A stretch of 64,000 nt of DNA from an uncultured Patescibacteria group bacterium (GTDB lineage Bacteria > Patescibacteriota > Gracilibacteria > BD1-5 > UBA6164), in NCBI GenBank assembly GCA_963926055.1, contig CAWUVK010000004.1, positions 40,934 through 104,933 of the forward strand, given 5' to 3'. Shown in pieces: positions 151 to 63,565 of this stretch. The notes under the pieces were generated by a model. It saw only the letters and a program-made list of their open reading frames with translations, had not been told where the DNA came from and did no database searches. Positions within the stretch are counted from its first letter, which is position 1. Each line of letters opens with the position of its first letter. The position numbers and the translations under genes are program-made.

Positions 151-226
151 TGGTACGCCCGGCAGGGATCGAACCCACGCAAACCCAGGTCCGCGGCCTG
201 GTGCTCTTCCACTGAGCTACGGGCGC
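151..226 (-). tRNA. tRNA-Arg (anticodon read as GCG)
   Basis: The reverse complement GCGCCCGTAGCTCAGTGGAAGAGCACCAGGCCGCGGACCTGGGTTTGCGTGGGTTCGATCCCTGCCGGGCGTACCA folds as a cloverleaf. It has a 7-bp acceptor stem, a GCTC/GAGC D stem, a CCAGG/CCTGG anticodon stem, a TTCGATC T loop and an encoded CCA. The 7-nt loop CCGCGGA places GCG at positions 34-36. Confidence 0.8.
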
Positions 227-9084: not shown

Positions 9085-9153
9085 ATTGTTATTATAATTG
9101 CAATTTAATCGAAAAAAAATATCATTAATAAAAATATTTACTAAAATAAATTT

Positions 9154-10398
9154 ATGTCTCAATCAATTATTTGTCCAAATTGTAGTACGTCAATAGATCT
9201 TGATAAATTAGCAGACGAAAAATATTCTCAACTCATGAAAGATCAAGAAAGAAAATTGAGAGAACAACAAGAAAAACAAAAAGAAAATTTTGAAAAAGAA
9301 ATGGAAGAAAAAACCATTGAAATGAGAAAAAAAGCCCAAGAATATGCTGAGAAAAAAGCATGAGAAGCAAAAAAAGAACTTGAACTAGAAATGAAAGATA
9401 TGCAAGAACAATTGCAAAAAGCACAAAAAGATAGAGAAGAATCGAGAAAAAAAGAACTTGATTTTATGAAAAAACAAAGAGAACTAGAAGATAAAGAAAA
9501 AAATTTCGAGCTTGAAATGGAGAAAAAAATGTACGAAGAAAGAAAAAATATTGAAAAGATGCTCGAAGAAAAAATGAGAGAATCTTCACAAAAAGAAATG
9601 GATTTGAGAATGGAGAAAGTCCAAGAAGAAAATAGAAAAAAAGAATTAGAAATGCTCAAACAACAAGAGCAGATGAAAAAAACTATTGATGATTTAAAAA
9701 GAAAATCAGAACAAGGTTCTCAACAAATTCAATGAGATATTCAAGAAGATGATTTAAAAAATGCTATTTCACAATCTTTTCCAATCGATGATGTAGAAGA
9801 TGTACCAACCGGAATTAAGTGAGCGGATTTAATTCAAACAGTAAAAAATAGTATTGGGCAACCAACTGGTACAATCGTTTGGGAATCAAAAAATACAAAA
9901 TCTTGGACTGAAGCGTGGATTATGAAACTCAAAGATGATAAACTAAAAGTCAATGGAAATATTGCCGTTTTAGTTTCAACGGTTTTACCAAAATGATTGA
10001 AAAATTTTGGAATGGTTGATGATGTGATGGTATGTTCTCCAGAATATGTTATTGCTGTTTGTAGTCTTTTAAGAGACCAACTCATCGCTATTTCGAAAGT
10101 TGAAAAAGCAAATCAATGAAAAGATATAAAAATGGAAATGTTGTATGGATATCTTACGAGTCAAGAATTTTCAAGTAAAATAAATATGATGGTGGATGTA
10201 TTTGCAAACTTAAAATCAGGAATAGATTCAGAAAGAAGAGCCATGGAAAAAAACTGGAAAAAAAGAGAAAAAGATCTCGAAAGAGCCACTTTTGCAGTAA
10301 CTGGAATGTATTGAGAACTTGAGTCTCTCATGGGGCAAGCTCTACCTGGTTCTGAAAAATTAGAACTTGGTGCTGGTGATGAAGAAGACGAAGATTAA
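9154..10398 (+). CDS. DUF2130-family protein (Zn-ribbon + coiled coil + conserved C-domain)
   Basis: Track fragments 9154-9363, 9391-9735 and 10132-10314 are in one frame, giving 414 aa. Motifs are CPNC at the N-terminus, a Lys/Glu-rich coiled coil, then GDIQEDDL..FP.D.VEDVPTGIKGADLIQTV..G.IVWESKNTKSWTEAWIMKLKDD. Confidence 0.75.
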
Positions 10399-12106: not shown

Positions 12107-12169
12107 TGTATCTGTAATTTTCATTTTTTCATTTATCAGTTAGAATAATATATATTTATATTTTAATTA

Positions 12170-13255
12170 TTGTATATGGTGTCATTAAATAAACAATTAG
12201 TAAAGATTAATACCCAAGAAGTAGCAGAAATAGAAGAAGTATTTTCTCAAGCAAAAGACTTTAGAGAAGTTGGTGAGAAAATTACAGCTCCAATTGATAG
12301 CATTATTTCAGAAACTACAAAAATAATAGATGCAGATCCTATTATGAATGTTTCATTAGAATTAAGTAAAATGAATTCTGAAGTATCTGGGGTGTATGAT
12401 TCGATTATTGACAATGATGGGAAAGTTATGAAAGTTCTAAAATCAATACCTTTCCTAGGTTGATTGGCAAAGTCATTAGATAAAAAATATGATGAAGCTA
12501 AATTTAATATAAAATCAATTGAATGAAAAATAGAAATGATTTTTTCATGATTTGATATATCATATGATTCTGTAAATACTTCTATTGATATGCAAATGAA
12601 ATTTTTAGATTCTCTTGAACTTAATTTGCAAAAGGTAATCGCATATAAAGAATTTGTTCAACAAAAATCTGAGGAATTTTCACAAAAACTTTCAACAGTT
12701 GAAGATGAAGCTCAAAAACTTAAATATGAAATGTTTGGAAGAAATGTAGAATTTTTTTTAGGAAATTTAACAGTATTGGTTTGAAACCTTGAAATGGCTA
12801 AAAAAAGATTATTAATGAGATTAGATTCAGCTAATAAATTATCTCTTGCCATGAGTTCAAGTAGGCCAATTTTTAAAACTTTGTTATCAACTGCGATTAT
12901 AGAAACTTCAAGCCAAAAAGCAATTGATGCTTCTATTCAGGCGATGGATGTGATGGGATCTACAATTGATAAAATGACGAGTGACCTTACTGATAAAGCA
13001 ATTGAAAGTTCTAAAAAAGCTGAACAAATATCATCTAAACCAGTAGTTTCAGCAACTGTTTTTATTGAAAATGTTACAAAATTAAAAAATCATTTTAATG
13101 AAATTGAAGATTATAGATTACAAGTAGCAAAAGAAGCTCAAGAAGAAAGAAAACTATTTGCTGAAGCAAAAAATCAGCTATCAGAATTAAAAACTTTAGA
13201 CGCTCAAGATGCTCAAGATTTTAAATCACAACTCATTTCACCAGAAGAAAAATAG
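12170..13255 (+). CDS. telA: TelA-family (toxic anion resistance / YaaN-like) protein
   Basis: Track fragments 12170-12463, 12590-12784 and 12794-13255 are in one frame, giving 361 aa. The protein is all-helical, with the layout and length typical of TelA. Confidence 0.65.
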
Positions 13256-13366
13256 TATTATCAAATAAAAAAAATATAAGTCAAAAAAACTTATGTTTTT
13301 TTATTGTAAAATCTAAGTGTTTGTTATATAATTAAAACTAATGTTGTAGTACTAATAAATAGATTC

Positions 13367-19377: not shown

Positions 19378-20154
19378 ATGAAAAAACAAGAATTAATACA
19401 ATATTTAGAAGATTTATTACAAAATAAAGAATATAAAGATAGCTCAAAAAATGGATTGCAAGTTGATTGTACAAAAGATGAAATCGTAAAAATCTGATAT
19501 GCAGTAGATGCAAGCACTTATATTTTTGATAAAGCAATTGAAGAAAATGTAGATTTGATTTTGACACATCATGGGATTTTTTGGGGGCATGAAGAAACCC
19601 TAACGTGAGTGGCGTATAAAAGAGCGAATAAATTACTTTCAAATGATATAGCATTATATTCGTCTCATATTCCATTAGATGCAAACCCAAAAGTAGGGAA
19701 TAACATTGGTTTAATAAAAGCATTTGTTAGAATTTTTGGTCTCAGAGAAGAAGACTATCAAATAGAAGATTTTTGAGAATATAAAGGGAAAACTATAGGT
19801 TTTGGAATAAAATTCAAACATAAATTACATATTTCAAATATGATAATGCCATTTGCAGAACAAATGCAATTACAAAAAAAATTATATAACTTTGGACATA
19901 AAACATATTTCAATTCTTTAGCAATCATTTCTTGAGGTGCTGCAAAAGATTTTATTCAAGCAAAAAATCAGTGATACGATATATTTTTAACAGGAGAAGC
20001 AAATCATGCACAAATGATTGCGGCAAAAGAACACGAGCAAACTATGATGCTTTGAGGGCATTATGAAACTGAAAAGATAGGAGTGAAATTATTAGCCTAC
20101 CATCTTCAAGAAAAATTTGGTCTTAAAATAGAATTTCTTGATGAAAAATATTAA
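19378..20154 (+). CDS. Nif3-like dinuclear metal centre protein (YbgI family)
   Basis: 258 aa. Motifs are NGLQV, DLILTHHG.FW, SSHIPLDA and the C-terminal GHYETE. Confidence 0.85.
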
Positions 20155-33147: not shown

Positions 33148-34203
<1,056 letters not shown>

Positions 34204-34284
34204 AAAATTTTTTATTGTAATTGATAATATTTTTATTATTATTTACTTGCTAAACAATTTCTTTATAAAAAAAGGAAAATAAAT

Positions 34285-34497
34285 ATGACATTATTATTAT
34301 TATTTGTACTAATATTGTTGACATACACAATATTAGTTAAACCAAGTTTGGTTGTTATATTGGCTCTATTAACTGGTCAAATTGGTTTGGTTTTCATTAT
34401 GATAATTGTGAGATTATTTGATATACCAAACTGTAAGTTTAATCCATTACGTTCTCAATATTTGAGAGCAAAGTGGTTTACTGTAAATACAGAATAA
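34285..34497 (+). CDS. small hydrophobic protein (70 aa)
   Basis: Intact track ORF with an AAGGAAAA Shine-Dalgarno-like sequence upstream. The terminator hairpin AAGTCTTA/TAAGACTT follows at about 34511-34540. Confidence 0.5.
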   Translation: MTLLLLFVLILLTYTILVKPSLVVILALLTGQIGLVFIMIIVRLFDIPNCKFNPLRSQYLRAKWFTVNTE

Positions 34498-34606
34498 TGT
34501 AGTTTTAGTATAAGTCTTATTAACATAAGACTTTTTTTTAATTTTAAAACAAAAATATTATGCTTTAAAATATAAAATATTTTTCTCGGGAAGTTATTTT
34601 TTTATT

Positions 34607-34634
34607 TTGACAAAAATTATTTTATTTATAATAT
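34607..34634 (+). promoter_or_regulatory. sigma-70-like promoter
   Basis: TTGACA (34607-34612), a 16-nt spacer, then TAATAT (34629-34634). A TATAAT also lies at 34627-34632. Confidence 0.5.
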
Positions 34635-34663
34635 GTGGCTGTTACAAAAATAATTTCAAAATT

Positions 34664-34717
34664 ATGAAAGCAATACAAATTTCTAACATTTTCAGAAGAA
34701 GACTTTTTACAAAATAG
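34664..34717 (+). CDS. candidate 17-aa leader peptide MKAIQISNIFRRRLFTK
   Basis: ATG at 34664. Three consecutive AGA codons lie at 34694-34702, directly abutting hairpin arm 1a. The TAG stop lies across the loop and 3' arm of hairpin 1. Confidence 0.35.
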   Translation: MKAIQISNIFRRRLFTK

Positions 34718-34803
34718 TAAAAAGAATTTTTTCGTTGCTTGTACAAAAATACAAATCTACAAAATAAAAAAACTTTTTACTCTTCAGGTAAAAAGTTTTT
34801 TTT
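34703..34803 (+). promoter_or_regulatory. twin terminator-like hairpins with identical stems (attenuator-like)
   Basis: Hairpin 1 is CTTTTTAC (34703-34710) paired with GTAAAAAG (34717-34724), followed by a T run. Hairpin 2 is CTTTTTAC (34773-34780) paired with GTAAAAAG (34788-34795), with an A run before and T8 after. Confidence 0.55.
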
Positions 34804-34830
34804 ATATATTATACATTTAAAATAATTATT

Positions 34831-35418
34831 ATGTCATTATGAATTTTAGAATCTCATGATTCTCAAGAAAATATTTCTCCAAATAATTCTGTTTCATCAC
34901 AAATGCAAAATACAAAAGCAAAAATTTTTGATTTGTCTCAATGTGATTTTCATGCGGGAAAATTATCTCAAAGTGAAGCACAAAAAGTTTTAGATTTGAT
35001 TATAGAAGAAAATAAAATTAAATCTCATATGCTTGAACCAAGTGTTGAAGAACTCATGCAAACGCAACATTTTATCGCAGCACAAGTAGACGATTTACTT
35101 ATTGGCTATACACGTTTAACCGATATTTGATATAAAAATATTCAAGAAGTGGGGAGTAGTATAGTAGCTCAAGCATTTCGTAGAAAACACGTTGGGTTAA
35201 AGATGATGCAAGAATTAATTGATAATTCTCAAGCAGATCCAGTATACGGAATCACAAATGTCGCTCATGTAGAACATATGTTTGATGAACTCGGTTTAAT
35301 GAAAGTGTTAAAAGAAAATATAGATAAAAAAGTATTAGAAAAAATAGAAGAATTATGAGCATTGTTAGATGATGATGTTATCTATGCAAATACAAAATTT
35401 TTACAATTATATTCGTAA
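34831..35418 (+). CDS. GNAT-family N-acetyltransferase
   Basis: Track fragments 34903-35130 and 35149-35358 are in frame. The acetyl-CoA motif is RRKHVGLKMMQELI. The start is 34831 or 34903. The stop is TAA at 35416-35418. Confidence 0.7.
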
Positions 35419-35429
35419 TATAAAACAAT

Positions 35430-36281
35430 ATGCAATATCCAAAAGTATATGAATTTGAATGAAAAAAATCTGGAAAAACAGCTGTGATTTTTTGAGCGAT
35501 TCATGGAAATGAAATTTGTGGACCACAAGTTTTAGAAAAATTAATTCAAGATATCAAATGTGGAAAAATTATTATAGAATCTGGAAAATTAATTATCGTA
35601 CCAATTTGTAATCCAAAAGCGTATCAAGCGGATGTTCGTCAAATGGAAGATAATTTAAATAGAGTTTTTTATGAGAAAAAAGATAAAAATAATTTGAGTT
35701 ATGAAGAAAAAATTGCAGAATTTTTAAAGAAATACATTGATGAGTGAGATTATATTTTAGATCTACATTCATTTCACGCACAAGGAAATCACTATATTTT
35801 TCAAGATTTCACTGATGAAAAAACCAATGAATTTATAAGTGCACTTGGAGTGAAAAATATAGTCCAAGGTTGGCCAGAACTATATGAAGCAGGAGACGAA
35901 TTAGATACTATTTGATATGCGTATTCACAAGGAAAAATATGAGCACTTATAGAATGTGGTTCTCATAGAGATCCAGAGTGTTTTGATATTGCGAATAAAA
36001 CGATACAAAATTTCATTATTTTTTCTGAAATAATTTCTGGAAAATGAGAAAAAAATATTCAAAATATTACCAAAATTGATTCTATGATTCGTAAAATTAA
36101 ACCAGGAAATTTCACAAAAGATTATATTGAAATGCAAGAAATTACTGCTGGAGAAGTTATTGTGAAATACGATGATGGGGAAGAATTTATAGCAGAAAAA
36201 GATGGAAATATTTTACTGACAAATAAAGATGCAAAAATCTGACAAGAACATTTCTATATAGCCTATAAAAAAAATAATTAA
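35430..36281 (+). CDS. succinylglutamate desuccinylase / aspartoacylase-family zinc hydrolase
   Basis: 283 aa, translated codon by codon. Motifs are FGAIHGNEICG, ILDLHSFH and ECGSH. Confidence 0.7.
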
Positions 36282-57360: not shown

Positions 57361-57424
57361 TAAAATGTCAATAATCTTTGTTTAAAGTAAAGATACATAC
57401 AATATTTTGTTAATATAAATATCT

Positions 57425-60400
57425 ATGAAAAATTTTTATATGTGAATTAAATTATTTTTTAGTTTATTATTTTCTCTTTTTCTTCCCATAGGATATTTAT
57501 ATGCAGACTGTACTATACCTAATGGTACAGGAGTAGAAAATATTGAATATGTACATAAATGGGCAAGTGCTAATATACTAGCAGACACTAGTAGTTGGAG
57601 AGACTGTAATTCAAATGATACATTTTGATCTATATGTACCCCATGAGATAGATGTAAATACAGCAGTTTTATGTGAACAGATGGTAAATTTTGTCAGCAA
57701 ACAACTCAAATAAAATCAAGTGAATGTGAGATTACTAGTTGTGATGAGTGATATATACTTAGTTGAGATAGTTGTATTGAAGATACTTCTGGATGATCTT
57801 GTGTATACAGTTATTCAAGTTCATGTTCTCAATGATATTCATATAATTCATCTACAAACAAATGTGAATTAATAAATGTAGCAAGCCCTTGTCAGTCTGG
57901 TTTTACATATAATTCAAGCACTTGAAAATGTGAAGATAGTTGGACTTGAAAAGGTTTTTGTGAAGAAAGCTGATTTAAGGCTACTTGAGATAATTTAAAT
58001 TGTGAAAAAAGAATTGTTTCAGACCCATTCTACATTGGAGGAGATATTTATAACAACTGAATATTAGCTTGTGGAACATGAACATCTTATAATGTTATTT
58101 CAAAAAAATGTGAATGATTTATTACAAATAATGAATCTCCAAAATGTAATATGTATATAGATTCATTTTATGATTCAGATAATTGGACAACAATTAGAAA
58201 CACTCAATTCCAATGAAATAAAACTGGTTCAAATAATAAATGTGTTTGAAAAAAAATAAAAAATTATTCATGTACGTCTTGATTTATACTAAATTCATCC
58301 ACTAAACAGTGTGAAAAAAAAGAACAACAAAATCCATCATGTTCTATAGGTAACCTTATTACTAGTTGACCAAATGAATGAAAATGTGAATTAGAATCTA
58401 ACTGTTGAGTCGATTCAGTTAATTGAGGTTGGAGTGATTATTCTTATGGATGATGGTCAATTTGTGATACTTCCACAGGTACTAAAACTAGACAATGAAC
58501 TAGAACATGTACGAACCCTACACCATTTTGAGGTTGATCAGATTGTATCTGAGCCAATCAAAATACAGAATCTACAACGTGTAGTGTAAATGCGTCTTGT
58601 TGAGCAAGTGTAAATACTTGTAATACATGAACCTTTTCTGACCGTACTGATTCTAATTGAATGGCAGTGTGGAGTTGTGTAGGATTAAATTCATGAGAAA
58701 ATAAAATTTGTCAATATAATACAGATAATACAGCTCCAACAGGTACAGTATCATATTCACCTTCAAGTTGGACAAATCAAAATGTAACTATTAGTGTATC
58801 ATGTAGTGATAGTGGATCATGATGTGATCAACCTACATATTCAAAAACTGTGACTTTAAATGGAGCTTGAAATATCACTATTAGAGATAAAGTATGAAAC
58901 ACTAGAAATATTTCATATAATGTTACAAATATAGATAATACACCACCAAGTTGAGAAGTATCTTATACTCAAAATTCTTCTACTTGAAATGTAGTAATCA
59001 CAGTTGAGTGTAGTGATAGTGGATCATGATGCAAGCAATCTACATATACAAAATCAGTAAGTTCAAATGGTACCGGCATAATCTCTATTGCAGATAATGC
59101 TTGAAACTCTAGCAATGTTTCATACAATGTTGTAAATATAGATAATATAGCACCCACAGGAAAAGTTTCGTACTCACCATCAAATTGGACAAATTGAAAT
59201 GTAGTAATCACAGTTGAGTGTAGTGATAGTGGATCATGATGTAATCAATCTACATATACAAAATCAGTAAGTTCAAATGGTTCTGGTATAATTACTATTT
59301 CAGATAATGCCTGAAATACAAAAAATATATCATATAATGTTACAAATATAGATAAAGTAGCTCCAACAGCTACAATATCTCATAATCAAGGATGGTATAA
59401 CAATATACAAACTATTACTTTTTCAGCAAAAGATACTGGATGAAGTAGGTTAAAACGAATATATTTGCAAGAAAGTGTAAATGGTTGAAATTATACTTAT
59501 GTTTCAGCAGCGAATTATGATAATTTAAATTCATCTACAAATGTAACAAAAACATTTACTCGCTCTGCTATAAATGGAAATAATTATAAATATAGATTAA
59601 TATCTTGGGATTATACAGGACAATATAGTATTGTATATGGACCAAATTCAGCAATATATTTTGATACTGTTGCTCCAGATGAACCTAATATAAATTCATC
59701 TACGCATCAAAATAATGTGTGGTTAAATAATAATAATCCTTCTTTTTGAATATCAAAAAATAATGTAGGACCAAGTAATTCTACAAATTATTATTGTATA
59801 GATACAAATAATAGTTGTGATCCAAATATATCTTGAGATTATAAATCATATACTAATTTATCAAATGGTGTTTGATATTTTAGAGCTAAAACGTGTGATA
59901 CTGGTTGATGTAGCGGTGTAAAATCGTTTACAATTAAAACAGATATGACAAAAGCTACATGATCATTAGATTATAATACAGGTTGGTATAATAAACAGCA
60001 AATAATTTCTTTTTGAGCTACAGATACTGGATGAAGTAAATTAAAAAGAATTCGGTTACAGGTGAGTAAAGATGGAAATTCTTTTGAATATATTGCAAAT
60101 ACAGATTATAATAATCTTAACACAGATAGTATATATAAAGAATATATCCAAATTCCTAATACTAATATAATTGATAATACTCAATGAGATGTAGTGGAAA
60201 CTCCTTTAGATAATTACGAAGCTACACCTATTGATCAACAACCTGGTATTGATATTCCAAGTTCATGAAATCCAGATTCAACAATATCAAATCCTACTAT
60301 TCCTGACAATCAAATACAACCGAATGATCCTTCGGAAAATGCTATTATGTTTCAATCACAAAACATAGCATACCAAGTTAATATGGATGAAAAAACTTGA

Positions 60401-63400
60401 GAATTAAATAATTATCAATATTTATTTTATCTTCCTACTTCTTTAACTTCTTTAAATAATAGTGGTTATAAGTATAGGCTTATTGTTTGGGATAATGCTG
60501 GAAATATAACTTTTGTACCTGGACCAAGTGGAACAATTAATTTTGATACTATAAAACCTACTGTTTGAGCAACTAATTCGGATGAAAATCTATGGAAAAA
60601 CACCAAAGAAACAGTTACATTAAGTGCTGGAGATCAATGATGAAGTGGAGTTAAATATTCTAAATATATCTGGAATAATAATTCATGTGTAACTAATTGA
60701 GTACTATACTCAAATGGTGATACTACTACGATTCCAGCAGAATGAAAGAATACATTATATTTATGTGCAAGTGATAATGCAGGAAATATACAAACCTGGT
60801 CAGGTATTTATAAATTTGATGAAACAAATCCAGAAGTGAATCATAATTATTTATTTGATGATACATGGACAAATGCATCAAGTGTTATTAATTTTAAAGC
60901 AACTGATCCAAATCCTACTATTCATTCTGACATTAAAGAGACAAAATATTGTAGAAATTCTGAATGTAATCCAAATATTTCTGGAAATAGTATTACTTTG
61001 ACTTTAGATGATGAAAGTATTTACAGATTTCAAACTATTGATCATGCTGGAAATAAAAGTCCTATAAAAGAAGTAAGTGTAAAAATTGAAGATAATACAC
61101 CAAATATATCTGTAGATTTCACTGATACAATTGGACAAAATTATACAGCTTGAAATTGGATAAACTCAAATATAAATGCAAAAATAAATTGTAGAGATAC
61201 AGATGAATCTATAAATTCAGGCTGTAATCCAGATACATATCAATTTAATCTTACAGATAATAAAGATACATGTTTAAGTAATGTAAGTTGATTTGAAAAC
61301 TATACATCTCAATGAGTAAATATTACAACATTAAATAATACAAATAAAGTTCTCTATATTTGTATGAGAGCAAAAGATTTTGCAGAGAATGGATATAGTT
61401 ATTCAGATGTGTATGAAGTAAAAATAGATAAAATTATTCCAAATTATGAAGATATTTCAGTAAATTCTTGATATCCAGATACAAATAGTAAATTACATGC
61501 AAGTGAAAGAGAGTTGTCATATTCTATTGATGATAAATCATGAGCTCCAATAGTAAAAATAGAATGATACTTTGAAGATTATGAAAATAATGATTCATTT
61601 ACTCTTTCTAAAACATCTTCTTGAAATACTTTAACTTTCATGTGAAATATGACAAAAGTTGATAATGAGGAAAGTATATCAGATGGTATGAGAACCTATA
61701 GTTTTCATATTACTAAAATTGAAGATCAAGCGGGAAATAGTATTTCTAGAAATATAACTAACCCTATAAAAACGTATAATTATAATGTTTATGCAAATAT
61801 AGATTCTAATCTAAAAATTTCATTAGTAAAAAATGATTTAAACTCTCATAATATTGCCAATGGAGAAATTAATAATATGAATATTGAAGTTAGAGATGAA
61901 TTTAATAATATAATTATACCAATTGCAAATATTTGAAGAAAAGTAAATATGGTTTTTAGTGGACAAAATACATTAAAATTAAATCAATATAATACTATAA
62001 ATTCAGATTCCTCAATATTTGTGAATATTCCAAACTCAGAGACATTATTTAAAAATGATATTTTTAACTCTTGAGATAATCAATACAATAATTTGCTTTC
62101 AAATAATTGAATATATACTTTTGAATACAAAGTTTATACTCCAACATTTAATGGAATAAAAACAAATGGCCAACAATATGTAAATGGTTGAGCTCATATT
62201 AGTGAAATCGAAGTAAAAACTCAACAAGATTTAGGTATAAACAATGTTTCAGAAACTGAATTTGTGTGAAATAAAATTGAACCAAATATTGATTTTGATT
62301 TTGCACCATTAATTTCAACTCAATTTGACTGAGATTTTTCTAAAAATTATTCTTTGAATCAAGATTTAGAAAATATAATTTCTTTTATAAATACAGATTC
62401 TAGTAAACCACTTTCAAACCAAAAAGTATTTTTATGATTTGGAAAAGCAACTCAAAATACTAATGGTACGCAAGAAAATTTAAATTTAGTAGTAAATTGA
62501 AGTAGTATTTCTGAATGACATCAAACAAATATTACAAATTTAAAAAGTTTTGATAATTTTAATCAAAAAAGTTTTAGCTCTGAAATTAAACAAACAAAAG
62601 AGAGTTTAACGGATAATGAAAAAAAGCATTATATTTCAACTCATATTTGATATACTTTAGATGGAAATAATATTTTTTACAATAGTGATATTATTTGAAA
62701 AACGAATTATTCTGCGGGAACACTTTTAGATAGTTCTACAAATCTTTGAGTAAAAGTACTTTGAAATGTACAATCAAAGAATCAAACAGATATTTCTGAT
62801 AATCAATCTGAAACTGATATTTATCAATTATGAAATAATACAAAAGCTGATTTAAAAGAAAAAATTAAGAAAAATGTAGCTGAAATTTCAATGAATGTAT
62901 CTGCTGAGGAAGTTTCACAAATTACAAATATTTGATGAAATTCTTGGGATAATTCAATAATTGCTCCAAAGTTATCAAATCAAAAAATATTATTAACAAA
63001 ATGAGAAGTAAAATTATCTTCAGCACAAAAATATACAGGGAAGAAAACATTAGTAATACAATGATGAAACCTTTATATAACTGAAAATCTTTTAGCTTCA
63101 AATAAAGTAAATGATATTTTATGAATTATAGTTCTGGAAGATGAAAATGGAAATGGTTGAAATGTTTATATAGATCCAAGTGTAACAGCTTTAGAAGCAG
63201 TAATTTTTGCTGATAAATCTTTATTAAATTACGATGGAAGTAATGTAGTTACAGATGGAAGACAATTAAAAAATCAATTTTATTTCTATTGAACATTGTT
63301 TAGTGAAAATACACTTTGAGGATATGTTTCTCAACAATGTCCATATTTTGTTTCTAATTGTGATTTTGATACAGCTGAAAAATATGATTTAAATTTTCTA

Positions 63401-63565
63401 AGATCATATTATGTCTATGATTCAAATGATGATGGAAATTTAGATGCAGCAAACTGAAATTCATATTTCAATTCTTGAGATGCATATTTTGCTTATCCTG
63501 TTATATTCGAATATAACTCTAATATCCAAAATAATCCTCCAGATTTATTTGAAATTAATCAATAA
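57425..63565 (+). CDS. giant secreted surface protein (about 2046 aa): Cys-rich EGF-like modules, TSP1-like repeat, tandem Ig-like domains
   Basis: This is one frame (track fragments 60836-61153 and 61649-61936 are in frame), open only with TGA read as Gly, from ATG at 57425 to TAA at 63563-63565. It has a signal peptide. Repeated modules have the form C..G[YF]..N....KCE. The TSP1-like segment is GGWSDYSYGGWSICD...R.GTRTCTNPTPFGGGSDC. Many ..W.N..V.I....D..SG. domains follow. Confidence 0.85.
58724..59353 (+). repeat. three tandem ~210-nt (70-aa) domain repeats inside the giant gene
   Basis: Copies 2 and 3 are near-identical over more than 80 nt (TTGAAATGTAGTAATCACAGTTGAGTGTAGTGATAGTGGATCATGATG...), starting at 58984 and 59194. 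Each copy encodes APTG.VSYSP..WTN.NV.I.V.CSDSGSGC....Y.K.V..NG.G.I.I.D..GN...ISYNV.NID. Confidence 0.85.

Follow-up and report, generated by a model that had tools for sequence, protein, structure and literature searches.

The stretch of DNA analysed here (hereafter the window) comprises 64,000 nt from an uncultured Patescibacteria group bacterium of the Gracilibacteria (assembly GCA_963926055.1, contig CAWUVK010000004.1, positions 40,934-104,933, forward strand). Downstream of an MnmA gene and a small membrane-like open reading frame (ORF) it carries a compact leader unit, followed by genes for a GNAT-type acyltransferase and an AstE/AspA-family zinc amidohydrolase (Table 1). The unit consists of a predicted promoter, a very short ORF that contains several arginine codons in a row, a first hairpin and a predicted intrinsic terminator (T2). 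An earlier note had read this arrangement as an attenuator-like switch of the two downstream genes, and inspection of the sequence confirmed that every element it described is present where it had been placed.

Table 1 Features of the leader unit and its surroundings (window positions unless a locus is named)
Feature	Position	Strand	Details
MnmA gene	33148-34203	+	Upstream neighbour of the leader unit
70-amino-acid (aa) membrane-like ORF	34285-34497	+	Between MnmA and the leader
Intrinsic terminator of the 70-aa ORF	34512-34539	+	AAGTCTTAT-taac-ATAAGACTT, then T8
Sigma-70-type promoter (predicted)	34607-34634	+	-35 TTGACA 34607-34612, 16-nt spacer, -10 TAATAT 34629-34634
Leader ORF, 17 codons + TAG	34664-34717	+	ATG 34664, TAG 34715-34717; encodes MKAIQISNIFRRRLFTK
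Extended hairpin 1 ('1:2' protector)	34670-34738	+	From minimum free energy folds
Regulatory codons AGA-AGA-AGA (Arg-Arg-Arg)	34694-34702	+	Directly abut arm 1a
Hairpin 1, apical arms	1a 34703-34710, 1b 34717-34724	+	1a CTTTTTAC, 1b GTAAAAAG, then AA and T6
Anti-terminator, 5' strand	34716-34724	+	AGUAAAAAG, the last two stop-codon nucleotides plus 1b; pairs with 34773-34781
Small linker hairpin UUGUA-CAAAAA-UACAA	34739-34754	+	Predicted fold, between hairpin 1 and the terminator
Intrinsic terminator T2 ('3:4', predicted)	34766-34803	+	A7, stem-loop, T8 34796-34803
First gene: GNAT-type acyltransferase, 195 aa	34831-35418	+	Weak PF00583 match, 23.5 bits
Second gene: AstE/AspA-family zinc amidohydrolase, 283 aa	35430-36281	+	PF24827 AstE_AspA_cat, 79 bits
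ATP-grasp + AstE-family operons	L016 5213-7287; L018 65-2139		Counterpart of window 34831-36281

The loop between the apical arms of hairpin 1 holds the leader stop codon, the G of TAG being the first base of the 3' arm. In minimum free energy (MFE) folds this hairpin is extended by two lower tiers: the AGA codons double as the 5' strand of its lower stem, pairing with the U6 run at 34727-34732, and at the base GCAAU (34670-34674, codons 3-4) pairs with GUUGC (34734-34738, the bases after the U-run). This modelled structure is a candidate pause hairpin. T2 is formed by arms 2a, CTTTTTAC(T) at 34773-34781, and 2b, (G)GTAAAAAG at 34787-34795, on either side of its loop (core arms 34773-34780 and 34788-34795). 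The pattern CTTTTTAC-N3-12-GTAAAAAG occurs twice in the window against an expectation of 0.00, and the segment 34640-34810 folds at -28.2 kcal/mol (z = -4.1 relative to shuffled sequences).

Protein searches with the GNAT and AstE-like genes recovered 19 GNAT homologues (55-98% identity) from a narrow clade, and a metagenome scan with the pattern of arginine codons plus hairpins added only one extra locus, in which the same leader lies ahead of an ATP-grasp ligase gene and a second AstE-family gene. A search for ATP-grasp homologues led to loci L016 and L017 and to the more distant L019. Altogether the relatives supplied nine further distinct versions of the unit, making ten sequences from about four clades; the nearest relatives carry the labels of Patescibacteria or Ca. 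Gracilibacteria metagenome-assembled genomes. Gene order at L016 and L017 is that of the window (HrcA, glycosyltransferase, MnmA, small ORF, leader, gene X, AstE-like gene, minus-strand gene). At both of these loci, and at L018, where RecQ lies downstream of the operon, gene X encodes a 398-aa ATP-grasp protein resembling L-amino-acid ligases where the window has the GNAT gene, with the leader and the AstE-family gene kept. L019, the most distant copy, has a different neighbourhood. As judged by sequence similarity, the operon is a pairing of an amide-forming enzyme (GNAT or ATP-grasp, which have unrelated folds and are swapped for one another) with an AstE/AspA-family amidohydrolase. Since the leader stands ahead of both operon types, it travels with AstE-family operons whichever amide-forming enzyme comes first.

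All ten sequences retain the promoter, the 17-codon frame, the AGA run, the stop codon in the loop of hairpin 1 and the predicted terminator. The leader RNA of the window is 98, 86 and 75% identical to those of L002, L003 and L006, whereas identity in the same comparisons falls to 66-81, 51-53 and 32-51% at four-fold sites in the flanking genes, and the excess of identity in the leader indicates that the unit is under purifying selection. T2 has the standard gene-end form of the window (A-run, stem, loop, stem, T-run) and is predicted in all homologues, 20-32 nt ahead of the first gene (27 nt in the window), in agreement with its earlier description as a classic intrinsic terminator. A second promoter would not fit into so short a distance, and expression of the operon hence depends on read-through. 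A small hairpin is likewise predicted at the linker position in all clades, but its sequence is not conserved.

The leader ORF and its arginine codons, on whose conservation in relatives the earlier note had staked its proposal, are kept across all ten sequences. The ORF is 17 codons long in each of them without a single indel, whereas the 5' untranslated region, the linker and the terminator-to-gene spacer vary in length. Its frame is always open; the remaining frames are interrupted by stops in nine of the ten. The ten predicted peptides are MKAIQISNIFRRRLFTK (window), MKAIKISHIFRRRLFTK, MKAIQISHIFRRRLFTK, MKAIKISHIFTRRLFTK, MNAIQISNISRRRLFTK, MNAIQVSNISRRRLFTK, MNAIQFSNISRRRLFTH, MFGVNISVIRRRRLFTN, MFGTNISVIRRRRLFTN and MQVTVSNIRRRRPLINK. 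Two to four consecutive AGA codons are present in every version, including that of L019 with its different hairpins. Residues 2-10 and 14-17 vary freely, and the residues that follow the arginine run (LFTK, LFTN, LFTH, PLINK) are not conserved. Most changes in codons 2-10 are non-synonymous, with no preference for third positions, and the conserved object is therefore not the peptide as such. A partly conserved (I/V)-S-x-I motif does precede the arginine run in all clades, with S7 and I9 invariant in nine of the ten peptides; in L019 this Ser/Ile motif is shifted by one codon towards the start. Arg-Arg-Arg does not occur in the 17,065 aa of window proteins, and AGAAGAAGA is found only twice in the 64 kb, the second time, at 19746, inside a gene.

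The promoter had been described as near-consensus, and its hexamers and spacer are indeed as reported. The match alone is not significant, however, since 92 promoter-like sites were observed in 10 kb against 71.6 expected. Support for the promoter call comes instead from its conservation: all ten sequences have TTGAC(A/T), a spacer of exactly 16 nt and (T/C)AnnAT, with variation confined to the inner -10 positions and a promoter-to-ATG distance of 29-33 nt. The best promoter-like match of the 10-kb scan is a different site on the minus strand (ATGACA-18-TATAAT, 11/12, 34808-34837), which overlies the start codon of the GNAT gene and is directed back into the terminator; this site could be a mere consensus match in AT-rich DNA.

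Arm 2a is the 5' arm of T2 and also the 3' strand of the anti-terminator, and the two structures are thus mutually exclusive. In all clades the anti-terminator pairs the stop codon and 1b with 2a and the first bases of the terminator loop. Identity of the hairpin 1 and T2 stems, from which this alternative pairing had originally been deduced, holds true of the window's clade and is confined to it. In L006 and L016 the stems of hairpin 1 (CUUUUUAC/GUGAAGAG) and of the terminator (AGACUUUUUCA/UGAAAAGGUCU) are not identical, and in L019 both hairpin 1 (ACCAUUG/UGAUGGU) and the GC-rich terminator (AACCACUCGC/GCGAAGUGGUU) are unrelated to the window's hairpins. The predicted pairing of 1b with 2a is nevertheless kept, over 10 bp in L006 and L016 (GAGUGAAGAG with CUUUUUCACUC) and over 12 bp with one bulge in L019 (AGUAGUGAUGGU with ACCA(C)UCGCUACU), such that the general rule is complementarity of the stop-codon/1b segment to 2a plus terminator loop rather than identity of stems. 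The anti-terminators of these relatives use loop nucleotides that are dispensable for either hairpin itself, as selection on the alternative pairing predicts.

Several comparisons support the alternative helix. Its duplex energy is better than that of shuffled 5' strands at p ~0.014 in the window, at 0.002, 0.0025 and 0.004 in other versions, at 0.0045 in L016 and at <0.0005 in L019. The RNAalifold consensus includes 1b:2a. On the MAFFT alignment, 92.5% of anti-terminator cells are paired versus 45-71% in slid controls (for hairpin 1, 90% versus 55-62%); a model-guided realignment (A3) brought no gain over MAFFT. Three anti-terminator pairs have changed on both sides, and the covariation score lies above that of 500/500 shuffles. 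The helices of relatives contain seven G-U pairs on the plus strand and no other mismatches, which indicates that the structure is one of the RNA of this strand and not a DNA operator.

We folded the leader co-transcriptionally because a purely thermodynamic comparison of its alternative structures is uninformative. The mask reached 11 nt beyond the first base of the last arginine codon, and the fold included only RNA made before the 3' arm of the terminator. With a ribosome thus placed on the last arginine codon, the anti-terminator is the MFE structure in all clades (9-12 bp, segment folds of -9.6 to -13.7 kcal/mol; in the window a 9-bp helix within a segment fold of -9.9 kcal/mol). With the mask at the stop codon, the 5' strand of the anti-terminator is covered and 2a is unpaired. 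In ten of ten sequences the 5' strand of the anti-terminator begins at +16/+17 nt, counted from the first base of the last arginine codon, which is a distance of about one ribosome half-footprint, and this strand always includes or abuts the stop codon. The masked folds and this spacing extend to all clades the 1:2, 2:3 and 3:4 geometry of trp- and his-type leaders that the earlier note had recognised.

We consider it likely that the unit is a trp/his-type ribosome-mediated (leader-peptide) transcription attenuator that reads arginine codons, an interpretation with good computational support. We infer that the leader is translated and that its ribosome responds to arginine as follows. Transcription would start about 7 nt after the -10 box, and the polymerase would make the 17-codon leader and hairpin 1, with the U-run behind this hairpin as a likely pause at which the ribosome catches up. 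When Arg-tRNA(UCU) is plentiful, the ribosome would reach the stop codon in the loop of hairpin 1 and cover 1b; 2a and 2b would then fold, and transcription would end at the T-run ahead of the GNAT gene. If no ribosome were loaded, hairpin 1 and T2 would both form and transcription would likewise stop. When charged Arg-tRNA is short, the ribosome would stall on the last AGA codons and cover 1a, leaving the segment 16-17 nt downstream free. This segment, the stop codon plus 1b, would pair with the emerging 2a and terminator loop, T2 would come too late, and the polymerase would enter the operon of GNAT (or ATP-grasp) and AstE-family genes. Because the element is small and self-contained, it is amenable to testing in a heterologous host or in vitro.

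A number of observations weigh against this interpretation. T2 is the thermodynamic optimum in every modelled state, which means that the switch must be kinetic; the comparison of fold energies recommended in the earlier note thus favours the terminator throughout, and it is the co-transcriptional fold that yields the anti-terminator. The terminator of the trp attenuator is likewise the thermodynamic winner. The proposed switch would rest on kinetics and on transcription-translation coupling in a bacterium of the Candidate Phyla Radiation (CPR). The host range is narrow, and with only about four independent clades the covariation statistics are weak, supportive rather than decisive, the more so as related sequences can beat shuffles. 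Conservation of the AGA run could in part be structural, given its pairing with the U-run in hairpin 1, and in L013 the first AGA is ACA, leaving two arginine codons. A Shine-Dalgarno sequence is missing from the leader, as it usually is in this genome, where such a motif precedes 2 of 48 window genes and is absent from the other 46. Finally, the GNAT, ATP-grasp and AstE-family genes all score below equivalog cut-offs, and their role in arginine metabolism is conjectural.

These points call for a comparison with other explanations. The unit might specify a stand-alone transcript of about 165 nt, a small RNA and/or an mRNA for a functional 17-aa basic peptide, that is ended by T2, with the operon served by unregulated leak-through or an unseen promoter. 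We regard this as unlikely, although a promoter and a terminator do bracket a compact, highly conserved unit, trans-acting attenuator RNAs and leader peptides are known (rnTrpL/peTrpL), and the near-invariance of S7 and I9, together with the one-codon shift of the Ser/Ile motif in L019, would suit a functional peptide. The unit always precedes an AstE-family operon at the same short distance, even where the first gene has been swapped, with no room for a second promoter; the conserved anti-terminator uses loop bases that would have no role in a simple terminated RNA; and the free, mostly non-synonymous change of the residues outside the arginine run argues against a functional peptide. Such a transcript is in any case compatible with an attenuator and not exclusive of it. 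Less probable still is a factor-dependent attenuator in which an RNA-binding protein or ligand reads (AGA)n or the hairpins, as in TRAP, PyrR and ribosomal-protein leaders, and the ORF is incidental. Invariance within the unit is highest in the (AGA)3-4 repeat and the stems, and TRAP-like proteins bind triplet repeats. A weak PyrR-site match (18.2 bits, E = 4.7) is at chance level, and no Rfam protein-binding leader matches. This alternative does not account for a start codon and a frame fixed at 17 codons without indels, for a stop codon that always lies in the loop and within the anti-terminator strand, or for the +16/+17 spacing that fits a ribosome footprint, and the hairpin sequences of L019 have been replaced wholesale.

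A third alternative keeps the same architecture and changes the signal, with arrest dependent on the nascent peptide or a ligand, or the general speed of translation, taking the place of Arg-tRNA supply. Examples would be an effect of free arginine on the ribosome at the stop codon, comparable to that on the fungal arginine attenuator peptide, or sensing of the TnaC/SpeFL type, and the (I/V)-S-x-I motif ahead of the arginine run in all clades could be taken in its favour. Arrest peptides of similar length are known, among them speF orf34 (PMC6386406). We judge this variant improbable, and somewhat more so than the preceding two, because the residues past the arginine run are not conserved and a run of identical codons one footprint upstream of the anti-terminator strand is a hallmark of starvation sensing. 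Least probable of all is that the unit has no regulatory role, the hairpins being tandem or bidirectional terminators, insulators or a leftover duplicated repeat and the ORF a chance frame in AT-rich DNA. Hairpins of the A-run/stem/T-run type are common at the gene ends of this genome, promoter-like hexamers are abundant and, by our own estimate, a chance 17-codon open frame has a frequency of about 30% per lineage at this composition. Yet conservation lies far above that of four-fold sites; ORF, start, stop position and arginine run are kept in four clades, as is a promoter with an exact 16-nt spacer; the anti-terminator complementarity outlives stem replacement; and both flanking genes are on the plus strand, with G-U pairs that are strand-specific. 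Every one of these rivals misses at least one of the fixed frame, the placement of the stop codon in the loop and the conserved anti-terminator.

Two further ideas were rejected. A DNA operator, in which a dimeric repressor would bind the two identical palindromes across a distance of about 70 bp, is contradicted by the seven G-U pairs, which are A-C mismatches on the other strand, by spacers that differ among relatives and by the wholly replaced sequences of L019. An explanation by rare codons fails because AGA makes up 72% of arginine codons in window genes (arginine itself accounts for 2.4% of codons), and the attenuator reading needs no rare-tRNA argument.

The two regulated genes belong to the families named in the earlier note, with a weak match for the first and a clearer one for the second (Table 1). 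The GNAT gene contains one in-frame UGA (Gly) near its start, and its product weakly resembles amino-acid N-acetyltransferases; a PDB sequence search with it returned no match. The second protein scores 41.3 bits against the AstE equivalog model TIGR03242 (cut-off 305.65) and is also far below the cut-offs of the aspartoacylase and DoeB equivalogs, so that only membership in the PF24827 superfamily is supported; its PDB matches are superfamily members only. The ATP-grasp protein resembles the L-amino-acid ligase LdmS (118 bits, below the cut-off), and its PDB match, 7r8p, is an entry with an uncharacterised name.

The connection to arginine that had been drawn through AstE itself is therefore weak, but a separate line of evidence comes from a distant homologue. 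In L020 (1722-5346), which comes from an AT-rich organism with the standard genetic code, an AstE-family gene of 39% identity shares its operon with genes for a 266-aa protein with a faint GNAT signal and for an MFS transporter, and this operon adjoins a divergent ArgR gene whose product has both Pfam domains above their cut-offs. The intergenic DNA there contains repeated ATAATTATATAAATA-like motifs. The presence of ArgR beside this distant AstE-like operon is one independent hint, from gene context, that the regulated genes may be linked to arginine. The second distant AstE locus has no arginine-related neighbour. Neither distant locus has a leader as judged by gene layout, their upstream DNA not having been scanned for one, and there is no ArgR gene in the immediate neighbourhood of the window operon, the remainder of the window not having been screened. 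The attenuator logic predicts induction on arginine shortage, which would fit supply or salvage and not catabolism of the AST type.

The window has a GC content of 26%. Translation of the whole window with table 25/4 gives 28,972 aa in long ORFs, compared with 5,452 aa with table 11 (a roughly five-fold difference), and the 48 long window genes contain 519 in-frame TGA codons alongside 547 GGN codons; the genome is therefore UGA-recoded, with UGA as a sense codon. Gene ends across the window are marked by symmetric A6-stem-loop-stem-T6+ hairpins that are terminator-like on both strands, for example at 13285, 20170, 23959, 33076, 36286, 39878, 43989, 47061, 48821, 51997 and 57188, and their stems are often near-pure A/T. 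The terminator of the 70-aa ORF is predicted to set the leader apart as its own transcription unit. A 366-bp segment (34208-34573) with the 70-aa ORF and its own terminator is missing from L001, L002, L003, L009 and L014, where the MnmA stop codon and an MnmA terminator are followed directly by the leader promoter, and in L006 and L016 the same place is taken by unrelated ORFs of 165 and 124 aa. By this comparison, MnmA and the leader are separated by a variable slot for insertions.

A covariance model (R1) found one copy of the unit per locus and none elsewhere in the window. A 28.5-bit R1 match at 277-405 on the minus strand was considered as a second leader and rejected, as it consists of two ordinary terminator-like hairpins with no leader ORF; these hairpins sit between a 90-aa ORF and a tRNA-Arg(GCG) gene (151-226, minus strand). 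Elsewhere in the window, both strands are open together at 9141-10398 (417 codons on the plus and on the minus strand) and at 12163-13255 (362 and 315 codons), and positions 57419-63565 hold a very large ORF (2,048 codons).

Like trpL, hisL, pheL, leuL, thrL and ilvL of E. coli and Salmonella, the unit has a short ORF close to the promoter that contains consecutive codons for a single amino acid. As in these classical attenuators, the 5' strand of the 1:2 hairpin lies in the ORF, the 2:3 anti-terminator excludes a 3:4 intrinsic terminator, a terminating ribosome at the stop codon would block segment 2, the regulatory codons lie about one footprint upstream of that segment, and the peptide is otherwise free to vary. 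Unlike them, it would read arginine, its regulated genes are not a recognised biosynthetic operon, and its host is a UGA-recoded CPR bacterium that largely lacks Shine-Dalgarno sequences. In the window's clade, segment 1 has exactly the sequence of segment 3 and segment 2 that of segment 4; the arginine codons, moreover, also pair with the U-run of hairpin 1. The unit has no sequence or covariance-model similarity to any Rfam family, the His, Trp, Leu, Thr and Phe leaders, T-box and PyrR site included: none reached its gathering score in the whole window, or over 34450-34900 in a search with E up to 10, the best local matches having E values of at least 0.14 and scores far under the gathering scores.

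Other systems resemble the unit in part. The pyrBI leader of E. coli (pyrL) also has a U-rich pause region and a translating ribosome that physically prevents a hairpin, but senses UTP through polymerase pausing, with no run of codons for one amino acid and no 2:3 anti-terminator. T-box leaders and ArgR repression, by which bacteria usually sense Arg-tRNA or arginine, share the presumed signal, arginine status; there is, however, no T-box family match, and the sensor proposed for the unit is the translating ribosome. A literature search for leaders with arginine codons found as its sole case orf34 (SpeFL) of the Salmonella speF leader, also present in E. coli, in which consecutive arginine codons tie ribosome progress to arginine and select alternative mRNA structures (PMC6386406). 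According to its abstract, orf34 acts through Rho-dependent termination, unmasking of a ribosome binding site and RNase G sensitivity, and not through a pair of intrinsic terminator and anti-terminator (PMC6386406). It has 34 codons with a conserved domain and resembles the 17-codon leader neither in sequence nor in layout.

According to Naville & Gautheret (2010; PMC2965389), the leader-peptide systems demonstrated by then were confined to Proteobacteria and Actinobacteria; their own work contributed a newly predicted histidine leader from Firmicutes. ArgR beside the distant AstE-like operon suggests a swap of sensing systems of the kind those authors described (PMC2965389). Our literature search found no paper that names both Gracilibacteria and an attenuator, and among the papers on leader peptides or attenuation that it listed, none refers to CPR or Patescibacteria.

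To our knowledge, almost nothing is known of how CPR bacteria control their genes, since these organisms are uncultured and few recognisable regulators are encoded in their genomes. With this unit, the Candidate Phyla Radiation may well have its first identified ribosome-mediated transcription attenuator, which would also be the first attenuator with an intrinsic terminator to read arginine codons; on the same estimate, the unit would imply tight transcription-translation coupling in a UGA-recoded bacterium without Shine-Dalgarno sequences, and its operon, otherwise hard to assign, would serve the response to arginine starvation in a host that probably relies on other organisms for this amino acid. 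If so, compact and protein-free control operates in CPR bacteria and requires ribosomes close behind RNA polymerase. The range of leader-peptide systems would be widened beyond the groups named in PMC2965389, and arginine would join the amino acids read by terminator/anti-terminator leaders. The clade-restricted operon, in turn, would gain a functional hint, namely its induction on arginine shortage.

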